From the IMG/VR virus record IMGVR_UViG_2651869782_000025: a DNA stretch of 64,000 nt. One strand, given 5' to 3'. The stretch's first letter is position 1; the number at the start of each line of letters is the position of its first letter. The DNA is from a virus. Its lineage: Duplodnaviria; Heunggongvirae; Uroviricota; Caudoviricetes. Of the stretch, positions 38,812-44,815 are shown one piece after another. The translations under genes were made by a program, and so were the position numbers. The notes below the pieces were generated by a model that saw only the letters and a list, made by a program, of their open reading frames with translations, ran no database searches and was not told the origin of the DNA.

Positions 38812-41800
38812 CTATATTTTTCCGCCTACGTCTTTAAACTTCTCAATAAACGAAACGATTTTCTGGAAAACTGCCTGTTTTTTCGTTTTATATTGCGGAT
38901 TTAACGGACTAAGTTTTGGTAATGTTTCGTTTAATTCTGTGCCATTTTCGGTGGCATATTTGCGTTTTAAAGATGTGCGAATATAGCGTTTTGCTGCATC
39001 TTCATTGAGATTTTCTTCTTTTATCAATGCTTCTGCTTCACGTTGCTGTTCGCGTTGAGCAAACGTAAAGAATGCGTCAATGATGCTGGCTTTGTCCGGT
39101 AAATCATCCAGGTTCGTTTGCTGAATAAAATCGACCACCAGGCCCTCTTTAGCACGGTTCCCTAGGCTTGAACGAATTAAGCGTTTGACCTCTTCGATCA
39201 TTTCGCCCTTGCCTTTATTTTGTCTATTGTGTTCGAAAATCAGTCCAAGGATATAATCCAGGTTTATTTCCTGAGACTTCAGCAAATCGACCTCAAAAAC
39301 TACGTCATCCCAGTCAGTGGTTGATTTCTCTTTTTTCTCAGCTTCTTTCTCACGGCGCTGCCAGTCGCGAATATCGTTATAGGCAGAACGATAATCCTGA
39401 ATCTTGCGATCAGCAGGGAGACGAATTGTTTGCAATTCAGCGAACTTTTCATCATCCACATAATGTTCTGCTTTGAATTTTTCTACCGCAACAGGATCGC
39501 TAAGATCGATTTGTTGCAGGGCTTTTAGCGTGGCAAATTCATCATAGTTTTGCAGGATGTTCTCGGCACGCAGGTATTCGCCAAACAGTTTAACGAAGTC
39601 TTTCTTCTCTTTTTCACTTTCAATACTGGCAGGGTCAGGGAACCGTTGTTCCAGTTCTGAAACTACTGTCATGAAGCCGCGTTTAGCTTCACCAGTGGCA
39701 GCATCAGTAAAGCCTTCCATATACTCTGCATAACTCTTTTCTAAAACCACATTTTTGGTATTTTTGTCACCAAACAGCGTTATGGCATCAATGGTTGAGC
39801 GTTCCAGATCCCGGAACGTGACAATATTACCGAAGGTTTTAGTCGCGTCATAAATGCGGTTGGTGCGGGAGAATGCCTGCATCAGGCCGTGAAAACGCAA
39901 GTTTTTATCGACGAATAGCGTGTTTAATGTTGGAGCATCGAAGCCGGTTAAAAACATCCCCACGACAATTAGCAGATCGATATCCTGATTTTTAACCCGC
40001 TGGGCTAAATCACGATAGTAGTTCTGAAAACCGTTACTGTCGGTGCTAAAGTTAGTTTTAAAATGGCTGTTATATTCACGAATTGCAGCGTCCAGAAACT
40101 CTTTAGCACTGCTGTCCATTGCGCTGGTATCAAAAGTTTCATCGGAAATTTCACCAATGGCATTTTGTTCTTCATTGGCGGCAAAGGAGAAGATTGTCGC
40201 AATACGCAGCGGTTTATAGGTAGCCGATTTATTAGCGGCTTCTTCTTGTAACCGTTTAAACGTCGCATAATAGGCTTTCGCGGCATCCACGCTGCTCACT
40301 GCCAACATAGCATTAAAACCTTTTGAGCCAGGGAAGGTACGGTGGGTTTTCTGGCGGAAATTATTCAGAATATATTGCGTGATTTCCTGAATACGCATGG
40401 GATGAAGAAACGCCTGCTGATTTTCAGCCGCACTCAGTTTTTTCTCGTCAGTTTCTGTCTCTAAAGACTTAAACTGTGGCCGCACATCGTTGTAGTCCAC
40501 CTTGAATTTGAGCACTTTTTCGTCACGAATCGCATCGGTAATTACATACGAATGCAATTCATGACCAAATACGCTGGCGGTTGTTTCTGAGCCTAAGGCG
40601 TTTTCCGGGAAAATAGGGGTGCCGGTAAAACCAAACTGATAATAGCGTTTGAATTTCTTCTTCAGGTTTTTCTGCGCTTCTCCAAACTGGCTGCGGTGGC
40701 ATTCATCAAATATAAACACCACTTGCTGATTATATACAGGCAGATCGCTTTCTGCTTTCATCAGGTTATTGAGTTTCTGAATAGTAGTGACGATAATTTT
40801 GTTATCGTCCTTATCCAGATTTCGTTTAAGGCCTGCGGTATTTTCCGAGCCGTTGACGCTGTCTGGCGAAAAACGCTGATATTCCTTCATGGTCTGGTAA
40901 TCGAGGTCTTTCCTGTCGACCACAAAGAAGACTTTATCAATAAAGTCCAGCTCTGTTGCCAGACGCGCGGCTTTAAAGCTGGTGAGGGTTTTACCAGAAC
41001 CGGTAGTGTGCCAGATATACCCACCGCTTTCCGGTTTTGACCAGTTCTTCGCTGTAAAGGAACTCTTAATTTTCCACAGAATGCGCTCGGTGGCGGCAAT
41101 CTGGTACGGTCGCATTACCAGTAGTGTCTGACTGCTGTCAAAAACGCTGTAGTTCACCAGAACATTAAGCAGAGTATGTTTCTGGAAAAAGGTAGCGGTA
41201 AAGTCTTTGAGGTCTTTAATCAGTGTATTGTCTGATTTAGCCCAGTTCATGGTGAAGTCAAAACTGTTTTTATCGCGCTTTGTGGTGTTGGCAAAATAAC
41301 GGGTATCAGTGCCGTTGGAAATGACGAACAGCTGCAGATACTTAAACAGGGAATTTTCGCTGTTAAAACTCTCTTTACTGTAACGATGTATCTGGTTGAA
41401 AGCCTCACGAATCGCCACCCCGCGTTTTTTTAGTTCGATTTGCACCAGCGGTAAACCATTAACCAGGATCGTGACGTCATAACGGTTAGCATGAGAACCC
41501 GTCTGTTCAAACTGCTGGATAATCTGCACCTTATTGCGCATGAGATTCTTTTTATCTATCAAATAGATGTTCTCAAGTCGCCCGTCGTCAAAAATAAAGT
41601 CGCAGATATAGTCGATATGGATTTTACGGGTTTTATCCAGAATACCATCGCTGGGGTTGTCCAGATACTGCTCCGTGAAGCGCCGCCACTCGCTGTCATT
41701 AAACATCACACCATTGAGGCTCTGAAGCTGTTCCCGAACATTGGACAGCATTGCCGACTGTGATTTTACGGAAATAAATTCATAACCCTGATTCCGCAGG

Positions 41801-41928
41801 TCCTGAATCAGTTCACGTTCCAGGTCCGATTCGCTCTGGTAGCTGTCGCTTGTTTGCTCAGCTTTGATGTACTTATCAAGGACGATAAAGTTATTGGATT
41901 CAGCAATGGTGTGTGTTTGATGAGTCAT
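38812..41928 (-). CDS. hsdR: Type I restriction endonuclease subunit HsdR (family IC, EcoR124-like)
   Basis: 1038 aa (same length as EcoR124I HsdR as I recall); SF2 helicase motifs (TGSGKT, DECH) and N-terminal PD-(D/E)xK region. Confidence 0.9.
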
Positions 41929-42050: not shown

Positions 42051-43256
42051 TTAATTACTGACAGTTTCAGGTTTCGGGAAACTGAACAGTAAATCACGGT
42101 AGTATTCGTATTGTTTCTGGCGCAACTCGATTTCACGCGGGAGACCTTCGGTGATGGAGTTTGTCAGGTTGTAAAATTTATCCATCGTGGCGACGATATA
42201 AAGTTGTTCATCGTATGATGGGATAGGTATTTCAAATGCTCTCAACGATTTTAAACCTAAGTTTTTAATAGTTGAACCTGTTTTTTGATTTTCAAAATAC
42301 TGTTTTGCGTAATTGGTTTGCAGGAAATAGAAAAGATATCTAGTGTGGAGTTCAGGTGATTTAATTTTAAAATAGGCCACAGACTTACCGAGTACGATCT
42401 TCTCATTATTGTAAAAGGAAACATTTCCAATTGTGCCATTAATTGACAGGAAAACAGTATTTATTGGGTCAAAATGAATTCCGTGTTTTTTAAACATAAA
42501 ATCATTAACCTTTTTTGTGTTATCGTTAAATGATATTTTTTGATAGCCTAAATTGTTTCCATTGATAAAGAAATAATCACCGTTGGCGTCATATTCTGGA
42601 GTACCATGCAAACCGTCTCCAATTACACATAGCTCTCCTAATTTCAGACGTTTAACATCGTGGGCACCAAAACTAAATAACTGGTCGCGATAGTAGTTGT
42701 ATTGTTTTTTACGCATGTTAAGCTCAGCGGTAAGCTCAGCGGTAAGCTCAGCGGTAAGTGCAGTAAATTTATCCAGAATTCGAACGATTTCAGACTGGAT
42801 GGCAAGGGATTTTTCCGGGTTTTCTGGGCAGGGGATGGGGATAAGTAGTTTATTAACTACGATAGCATCAAGTGTTGGAATGCCCGCAACTCTCACCTTT
42901 GATTTCAGCAAACTTTGATAACCAATCAGTGCGAAATATAAAAACCTATTATTTAATAGCTCATTGTGCTCTAAGCAAAAGCATCCATCAGAGGACCAGA
43001 AGTCAACGGTGCTATAGCCAACAGTACCTGCTGAAGCGCCAACATTGATAATCATAACGGTATTAGCCGGACGATTCGACTTATTGTAATATCCTAACGG
43101 TTCTAAGCCGCCATGAAATACCGGGAATTTTTCTTCTGCTGAAAGCAGATTTTTAGTTAGCCTTTTTCCCCGCAAGACACTCGTGACATCTCCAAGGGCT
43201 TTCCATTCCACCTCTGTCCCATCTAGCAGTTTTTCCAGATAATTTAACTCGCTCAT
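42051..43256 (-). CDS. hsdS: Type I R-M specificity subunit HsdS with two target-recognition domains and central TAEL repeat
   Basis: 401 aa; central conserved region contains [13 protein letters not shown] encoded by 3 x 12-bp direct repeats. Confidence 0.85.
42720..42755. repeat. 3 x 12-bp tandem repeat (AAGCTCAGCGGT) inside hsdS, plus a degenerate fourth unit
   Basis: Read directly at 42720-42767; encodes TAEL x3 on the minus strand. Confidence 0.9.
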
Positions 43257-44815
43257 CCCTGCACCTCGTCACCTTCAATCTCTGCCACAATTGAGTCGAT
43301 ATCTTTACGCAACTGGTCGATTTTGCTGACCGTAGTTTTCAGTTCTGCATTCAGCTCAGCAATATCGATAATTTCGCGGTTATCTTTCGATTCTACATAG
43401 CTGCTCACCGACAGGTTATAGTCATTCGCTACAACGGCTTCAAACGCGACAGATTTTGCCAGATGAGCAACATCTTCCTTGCTGGTGAATACCTGCATAA
43501 TTTGTTCGATATGGGCATCGGTCAGGATATTGTTGTTGGTCTCTTTTTTGAACAGTTCGCTGGCATCAATAAACTGAACGTTGGTATCCGTTTTATGTTT
43601 GGACAGAACCAGAATGTTTACGGCAATGGTGGTGCCAAAGAACAGGTTCGGAGCCAGTGAAATTACGGTTTCGACATAGTTATTATCGACCAGATACTGA
43701 CGGATTTTCTGCTCTGCGCCGCCACGGTAAAAAATACCCGGGAAGCAGACAATCGCAGCACGACCTTTGGCCGAAAGATAGTTCAGCGCATGTAATACAA
43801 ACGCAAAGTCAGCTTTGGATTTGGGGGCCAGAACGCCAGCCGGGGCAAAACGCTCATCGTTAATCAGCGTCGGGTCATCGCTGCCAATCCATTTCACCGA
43901 ATACGGCGGGTTAGAAACGATGGCATCAAACGGTTTTTCATCTCTGAAGTGCGGTTCAGTCAGCGTATTGCCCAGCTTGATATCAAACTTGTCGTAGTTG
44001 ATGTTGTGCAAAAACATGTTCATACGCGCCAGGTTATAGGTCGTATGGTTGATTTCCTGACCGAAAAAGCCTTCTTCGATGATATGGTTATCAAACTGTT
44101 TTTTCGCCTGCAACAACAGTGAGCCGGAACCCGCTGCCGGGTCGTAGATTTTGTTAACGTGGGTCTGCCCGTGCATAGCCAGTTGTGCAATCAGCTTGGA
44201 GACGTGCTGCGGTGTAAAGAACTCACCGCCTGACTTACCGGCATTTGCCGCATAGTTAGAAATCAGGAACTCATAGGCATCACCGAACAGGTCAATCTGA
44301 TGTTCGTTGAAGTCACCAAGTTTTAACCCTTCAACCCCTTTCAGAACCGCAGCCAGGCGGGCATTTTTATCTTTAACGGTGTTACCCAGGCGGTTACTGG
44401 TGGTATCGAAATCAGCAAACAAACCTTTGATGTCAGCTTCTGAAGGATAACCGTAAGCAGAACTTTCGATAGAAACGAAGATGCTGTTTAAATCTGCATT
44501 CAGTCTGTCATTAGTATTTGCTTTCGCAGCTACGTTGCAGAAAAGCTGACTGGGGTAGATGAAGTAGCCTTTAGTTTTGATGGCATCGTCTTTAATGTCA
44601 TCAGTAATTACGCTGTCATCCAGTTTCGCATAACAGATACTGTCATCACCGGCTTCAATATAACTGGAAAAATTTTCGCTGATAAAACGGTAGAAAAGTG
44701 CGCCCAGAACGTATTGCTTAAAATCCCATCCATCGACCGAACCCCTGACATCGTTAGCAATTTGCCAGATTTGACGATGAAGCTCTGCACGTTGTTGAGT
44801 ACTTGTCATTTTCAT
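43253..44815 (-). CDS. hsdM: Type I R-M N6-adenine DNA methyltransferase HsdM
   Basis: 520 aa; NPPY catalytic motif ([10 protein letters not shown]) and AdoMet-binding motif; overlaps the hsdS start by 4 bp. Confidence 0.9.

Follow-up and report, generated by a model that had tools for sequence, protein, structure and literature searches.

Type I systems of restriction and modification (R-M) are assigned to families by sequence, complementation, and antibody cross-reaction (Loenen et al. 2014). In the type IC family, the specificity subunit HsdS contains a short TAEL (Thr-Ala-Glu-Leu) repeat, which is present in two units in EcoR124I, recognizing GAA N6 RTCG, and in three units in EcoR124II, recognizing GAA N7 RTCG (Loenen et al. 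2014). EcoDXXI and EcoprrI have three units each, which the same review terms "the optimum number", and in the EcoR124/EcoDXXI hybrids listed in the review literature (Table 2) the spacer tracked the repeat number, each copy number being active. The rule that two copies give an N6 and three copies an N7 spacer dates from 1989, and the change in repeat number has been ascribed in the literature to unequal crossing-over (Loenen et al. 2014). Here, we describe an hsdM-hsdS-hsdR operon located at 38812-44815 on the minus strand of a 64,000-nucleotide stretch of tailed-phage DNA (IMG/VR record IMGVR_UViG_2651869782_000025, referred to below as the window). With high probability, this operon is an intact type IC (EcoR124-family) R-M system of a P1-like phage-plasmid, situated at pap/phd-doc, where it has replaced the pmgT-humD segment of P1.

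The assignment is carried by the comparison of the three subunits with their EcoR124 counterparts. HsdR of the window scored 2279 bits against EcoR124I HsdR (PDB 2w00), the self-score being 2310, and HsdM scored 1148.9 bits against EcoR124 HsdM (7bst_D), the self-score being 1165.4; therefore, both subunits are almost identical to those of the type IC prototype. HsdS could be aligned end to end with EcoR124 HsdS and has the layout of conserved N-terminus, first target recognition domain (TRD1), central helix with three TAEL units, second target recognition domain (TRD2), and conserved C-terminus. The N-terminal, central, and C-terminal blocks of the two proteins were nearly identical, while the TRDs remained essentially unaligned, which indicates a type IC member with a different, uncharacterised specificity. 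The open reading frame (ORF) list and the Pfam domains showed that pap and phd-doc enclose the three genes, which are encoded on the minus strand in M-S-R order and have the following features:

43253-44815, minus strand: hsdM, N6-adenine methyltransferase subunit, 520 amino acids (aa) (ORF; Pfam N6_Mtase and HsdM_N)
42051-43256, minus strand: hsdS, specificity subunit, 401 aa (ORF; Pfam Methylase_S, two copies)
41929-42050, minus strand: hsdS-hsdR intergenic gap, 122 bp, containing a sigma-70-like site
38812-41928, minus strand: hsdR, translocase-nuclease subunit, 1038 aa (ORF; Pfam HSDR_N, SWI2_SNF2/ResIII, T1R_D3-like, and EcoR124_C)
38594-38618, minus strand: terminator-like hairpin and T-run downstream of hsdR, within P1-homologous DNA (pattern match only)

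All catalytic motifs of the hsdMSR operon are intact: HsdM contains methyltransferase motifs I (DPAAGSG, aa 225) and IV (NPPY, aa 302), while HsdR contains the helicase Walker A motif GSGKT (aa 310) and DEAD-type box DECH (aa 408) as well as the PD-(D/E)xK nuclease residues D151/E165/K167. The operon is predicted to be enzymatically active. The stop codon of hsdM and the start codon of hsdS overlap by 4 nt (ATGA). A sigma-70-like site, TTAACA-18-TATTTT, lies upstream of hsdR at 42023-41994 and, as a consensus match only, is a candidate for a separate hsdR promoter. The EcoR124 operon uses two promoters. The ORFs, the Pfam domains, and the HsdR and HsdM scores agree with the initial annotation of this DNA, which had recognized a complete EcoR124-like type I operon at these coordinates and had proposed the alignment with EcoR124 HsdS, by which the near identity of the conserved blocks and the difference of the TRDs became visible.

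The position of the operon in a P1 backbone was delimited by blastn comparison of the window with the P1 sequence NC_005856. The P1 homology ends at window position 38736 (P1 84482) and resumes at 44916 (P1 87970), and the window is collinear with P1 from approximately 43.5 kb past the end of the P1 map and on to approximately 5.9 kb. The cassette and its flanks are the following:

38737-44915, no strand assigned: non-P1 cassette, 6,179 bp (blastn vs P1), replacing P1 84483-87969
38039-38545, plus strand: pap (3'-phosphatase; the "HAD-like" gene), left P1 flank, 97% to P1
44986-45593, plus strand: phd (44986-45213) and doc (45213-45593), toxin-antitoxin addiction module, right P1 flank, divergent from hsdM, 97% to P1

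The displaced 3.5 kb of P1 contains pmgT, pmgU, pmgV, upfM-O, hot, lxr, and humD, and no R-M genes are present there in P1. The flanks thus confirm the position between a HAD-like gene (pap) and phd-doc in a P1 backbone, and it was also correctly noticed at first that canonical P1 carries no R-M system at this locus. The site is not an unusual one but the classical type IC hsd locus. In the GenBank record of P1, misc_features mark 84263-84482 as the sequence downstream of the EcoDXXI hsd locus, 84399-84482 as the R124/3 sequence downstream of hsdR, and 87969-88647 as the sequence upstream of the EcoDXXI hsd locus; the ends of these flanks coincide with the blastn end points in the window, indicating that the junctions are the same. 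In 1997, Tyndall et al. reportedly described type IC hsd loci as being flanked by P1-homologous DNA. At least 225 PLSDB plasmids showed the pap-hsdR-hsdS-hsdM-phd-doc arrangement at ≥80% coverage, and the same layout is found in the P1-like phage-plasmids pE189-1, phi456, and vB_EcoM-673R5, the latter two being phages. The pmgT-humD segment is one of the eight variable regions recognised in P1-like phage-plasmids. In the laboratory P1 isolate OP279344 (L023), from which res and mod are deleted, pmgT is followed directly by phd and the pmgU-humD part is gone. A propagating phage can thus do without the DNA that hsd replaces.

The TRD pair of the window was also found in a chromosomal type IC operon of the Escherichia coli leuX defence island (hotspot 37), which is flanked by nanS, HNH, AbiE, and DUF4942 on one side and by tRNA-Leu and ahr on the other; type IC systems at the leuX hotspot have been described in the review literature. 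The origin of hsdS was analyzed by sliding-window and informative-site comparison of the window with this chromosomal allele and with the P1 plasmid pE189-1 (NZ_AP024522). The features of hsdS that are relevant here are as follows:

42726-44552, minus strand: chromosomal-type patch, minimum extent (maximum 41771-44698) (informative sites)
42840-43199, minus strand: TRD1, variable N-terminal recognition domain, approximately aa 20-139, identical (100%) to the leuX-island allele of the chromosome, with approximately 40% DNA identity to pE189-1
42720-42755, minus strand: three perfect 12-bp units ACCGCTGAGCTT, aa 168-179, central coiled-coil helix D1, spacer-setting element (exact match, Tandem Repeats Finder (TRF))
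42207-42659, minus strand: TRD2, C-terminal recognition domain, approximately aa 200-350, common to the chromosomal allele and pE189-1

The chromosomal operon (HsdS WP_001292892.1) shares with the window the TRD pair, the same three copies of ACCGCTGAGCTT, 1205 of the 1206 bp of hsdS, and most of hsdM, but its hsdR is only approximately 95% identical, its flanks (AbiE/DUF4942 and tRNA-Leu) are not those of P1, and it lacks the S253F substitution, which the window alone carries. In pE189-1, hsdR is approximately 100% identical and TRD2 is identical, while TRD1 is a different one and only two TAEL units are present, spelled ACAGCAGAGCTT. Between 44552 and 42726 the window matches the chromosomal type at 210 of the 211 informative sites; in contrast, hsdR, the first approximately 120 bp of hsdM, and the upstream region are approximately 100% identical to pE189-1 and approximately 95% identical to the chromosome. 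By its informative sites, hsdS of the window is of recombinant origin: a chromosomal-type segment comprising the 3' two-thirds of hsdM, TRD1, and the three-copy repeat is embedded in a P1-plasmid-type locus. The simplest reading would be that homologous recombination with a chromosomal leuX-type locus brought a patch with TRD1 and the three-copy repeat into the P1 locus. Reassortment of TRDs by recombination is well documented in this family (Loenen et al. 2014).

On the plus strand, the repeat consists of three perfect tandem copies of AAGCTCAGCGGT at 42720-42755, the 64-kb window containing no further exact match, and TRF reported it with a period of 12, 3.3 copies, 100% matches, and a score of 80. 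The three perfect TAEL copies were thus rightly described in the initial annotation, and its statement that two versus three repeats change the spacer between EcoR124I and EcoR124II is found in Loenen et al. 2014. The degenerate fourth copy was not upheld: the 9-bp sequence ACTGCACTT upstream of the repeat encodes Thr-Ala-Leu without the Glu codon, and this partial unit is a stub conserved in all members of the family. Two DNA spellings of the TAEL unit, ACCGCTGAGCTT and ACAGCAGAGCTT, occur in the family, and each gene uses one spelling throughout, as expected for recent duplication or homogenisation.

Variation of the repeat number was apparent among the operons which carry the TRD pair of the window. 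Of the complete E. coli genomes with this pair, 12 have three copies, two have four, and one diverged lineage has two, while the draft genomes include a widespread two-copy form (P0001) and a one-copy form (P0004). Alignment of the whole operon over approximately 5,991 bp detected zero substitutions among alleles with one (L032-34), two (L025, L026, L029), three (L003, L021, L014), and four copies (L004), which differ only by whole 12-bp units and, in some of them, by a 1-bp frameshift in hsdM. Intact operons exist with one (L034), two (L025, L026, L029), and three copies. Since one to four copies are found with no substitution over approximately 6 kb, the repeat tract mutates much faster than the point-mutation background. 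Judged from these alignments, the TAEL repeat is a real mutational hotspot, though stable within lineages. The switch suggested at first therefore gains support as far as the copy number is concerned, as one to four copies occur on otherwise identical operons of approximately 6 kb, whereas the mechanism given in the literature is unequal crossing-over.

The hsdM frameshifts of these relatives lie at two sites. The four-copy allele L004 has an A5>A4 change at the equivalent of window position 44368, and a single-C deletion at the equivalent of 44312 is shared by L027, L030, and L033, which represent some of the two-copy and one-copy alleles. One dead-hsdM background thus contains both one and two copies, so changes in the repeat continue once hsdM has been inactivated. 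The idea that hsdM has a homopolymer on/off switch was considered and rejected, since one of the two frameshift sites is in an A5 run and the other is outside any run. By exact look-up, the three-copy and four-copy HsdS proteins (RefSeq WP_001292892.1 and WP_001292893.1) were absent from a collection of 15 billion proteins, where the top 120 homologues all have one or two copies, while three copies are common at the DNA level; this collection is not a fair sample for the frequency of two versus three copies, and the frequency estimates were dropped.

Three alternative explanations have to be weighed against these readings, of which a static repeat is the least improbable, although we regard it as rather doubtful. 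It supposes that three TAEL turns are merely the standard length of the type IC helix and that the variants are rare accidents, partly in decaying loci. This would agree with the three copies of EcoDXXI and EcoprrI, with the "optimum number" of the review, and with the IMG/VR contigs, 15 of which carry exactly three and 25 exactly two copies of the DNA unit, many of them, in both sets, with P1 pap or phd-doc flanks; the TRDs were found to be diverse in the three-copy set, where they were checked, and three copies are a common, probably the standard, state. It would also agree with the identical three-copy repeat retained by 12 complete genomes across hosts including panda, human, chicken, and buffalo, a stability at the lineage level that argues against very high switching rates, and with the frameshifted hsdM accompanying the four-copy allele and several one-copy and two-copy alleles, so that some of the copy-number variation may have arisen by drift in dead loci and not as adaptive switching. 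What a static repeat does not account for is the occurrence of four copy-number states with zero substitutions in approximately 6 kb, the existence of intact operons with one, two, and three copies, and the experiments on EcoR124I/II and their hybrids, in which every copy number was active with a shifted spacer. The lineage-level stability and the dead loci nevertheless weigh against the reading of the window's operon as an active enzyme with a changeable spacer, and the following points do so as well. The S253F substitution (TCT>TTT, window 42499, hsdS codon 253) in TRD2 is private to the window, being found in no chromosomal or plasmid copy examined with this TRD, and it could affect activity. 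None of the solved or characterised TRDs compared with those of the window was close, the nearest being Mycoplasma genitalium MG438 and other distant S subunits, and searching the literature for methylome data on the leuX type IC allele yielded nothing specific. How the coiled coil accommodates a change in only one helix is still an open question in the literature (Loenen et al. 2014).

The two other alternatives concern the origin of the sequence. A cassette recently inserted by a transposon or an integrative element, as opposed to an old allelic segment swapped through the conserved P1 flanks, appears improbable, even though the GC content of the cassette is below that of its flanks (0.432 vs 0.48-0.49) and in some relatives the insertion sequences IS903B and ISVsa5 lie within or next to the locus. 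Neither a transposase nor an integrase gene was found among the ORFs and Pfam domains of the cassette, its junctions showed no repeats of ≥8 bp, whether direct or inverted, and for the lack of terminal or target repeats and of a mobility gene a transposon-like insertion was rejected. Moreover, exactly the same junctions occur in the EcoDXXI and R124/3 loci, recorded decades ago, and in hundreds of plasmids, and 3.5 kb of P1 DNA is replaced, which is not a simple insertion. Even less probable, in our estimate, is that the hsdM-hsdS patch is an assembly or polishing chimera from a strain having type IC loci both at leuX and on a P1-like plasmid. Long stretches of 95-100% identity between the two loci could favour such an artefact, as could the distribution of the TRD pair, which occurs in 15 complete chromosomes and in none of the PLSDB plasmid records at ≥80% coverage. 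TRD1, however, is only approximately 40% identical between the two types and could not have been created by polishing, the patch lies with clean transitions within a contiguous 64-kb P1-collinear sequence, the private S253F is in no chromosomal copy examined, and TRD reassortment is, as mentioned, an established process in the family. A broader proposal, that the TAEL tract is truly a hypermutable contingency site in wild E. coli and that phage-plasmids capture leuX specificity modules by patch recombination, is conceivable, although the odds are somewhat against it; if it is true, a phage-plasmid with a captured TRD and spacer repeat would take on the methylation identity of the host. No published population-level account of TAEL hypermutability or of module capture from leuX by phage-plasmids was found.

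On the preferred reading, that of an intact type IC operon with a patch-derived TRD1 and repeat, the M2S complex would methylate adenines in a bipartite target, while R2M2S would translocate and cleave unmodified DNA. Each TRD would recognize one half-site, and the distance of the half-sites would be set by the central helix with its three TAEL turns, giving the long N7-type spacing as in EcoR124II, EcoDXXI, and EcoprrI, with the methylated adenines 8 bp apart. If a 12-bp unit were gained or lost, through unequal crossing-over or slippage during replication, the spacer would shift by 1 bp and a new specificity would arise, which could be tolerated via the type IC restriction alleviation described in the review literature. 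The R-M system would defend the lysogen from other phages and plasmids and would act with phd-doc to stabilise the plasmid.

Several other parts of the window also differ from P1. At the res-mod site of P1, between mat and lxc (window 56776-58321), the EcoP1I type III system is missing and the only ORF is at 56964-58271 (plus strand), which encodes a SIR2-like protein of 435 aa with matches to Pfam SIR2_2 (1e-23), to the PADLOC candidate PDC-S25 (6e-27), and, more weakly, to ThsA/LmuA-like proteins. It is probably a different defence gene occupying the P1 defence hotspot. Where the P1 map would enter darB, the window (59012-64000) contains non-phage DNA matching no phage record, with genes for a DsbA-like protein (60702-61343, minus strand), a PapD-type chaperone (62107-62799, minus strand), and the C-terminal part of a fimbrial usher (62792-63994, minus strand). 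The element is possibly a cointegrate, or else darB, the gene that counteracts type I restriction, may have been lost from it or displaced. Four tRNA genes (Asn, Thr, Ser-tga, and Met-cat) are located at 22190-23944, and the tRNA-Ser gene (22819-22905) falls within a segment (22443-23623) that has no counterpart in the P1 reference. Other segments without P1 match are 1-1174, 4616-6511, 12044-14583, 26556-27924, and 50147-51487; these fall around sim, rlf/pmgF, par, and the c1-proximal part, where P1-like phage-plasmids typically vary.

The type IC operon, its location in P1 DNA, and the TAEL switch have been known for a long time, and hundreds of records carry annotations of near-identical operons. 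The allelic series of one to four repeats and the chromosome-to-plasmid patch are added here as illustrations rather than discoveries. The main value of the analysis is correct annotation, the wider biology (type IC systems in P1 DNA, TRD reassortment, and spacer control by TAEL) being textbook knowledge. A type I system of this kind would be expected to shape which DNA is accepted by the lysogen and how the DNA of the phage itself is marked. The allelic series and the patch could seed a population-genomic study of the diversification of type I specificity, but no new question is opened by them.

Among the known systems, the type IC prototypes EcoR124I and EcoR124II of plasmids R124 and R124/3 share with the window the M-S-R gene order, HsdR and HsdM that agree at approximately 99% by score, the conserved regions of HsdS, and the TAEL repeat, which has three copies here as in EcoR124II. 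In contrast, both of their TRDs are unrelated to those of the window, so the half-sites recognized here are not GAA and RTCG. The carrier is also different, as EcoR124 is borne by the conjugative plasmid R124 and the operon described here by a P1-like phage-plasmid, although the DNA 3' of hsdR in R124/3 is homologous to P1, as in the window. EcoDXXI of plasmid pDXX1 and EcoprrI of the chromosomal prr locus are likewise type IC enzymes with three TAEL repeats and N7 spacers. The EcoDXXI locus has the same P1 flanks as the window, ending at P1 84482 and starting at 87969, whereas in EcoprrI the prrC anticodon nuclease gene is inserted between hsdS and hsdR, where the window has only the 122-bp gap and no prrC; an hsdS annotated as EcoprrI (H83) matches only the conserved quarter of the window's hsdS. 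Outside type IC, the phase-variable type I hsdS genes (phasevarions), driven by simple sequence repeats, similarly contain a tandem repeat inside hsdS by which the behaviour of the enzyme is altered. Unlike those repeats, the unit found here is 12 bp long and in frame, so that changes in its number would alter helix length and specificity instead of switching expression on and off.

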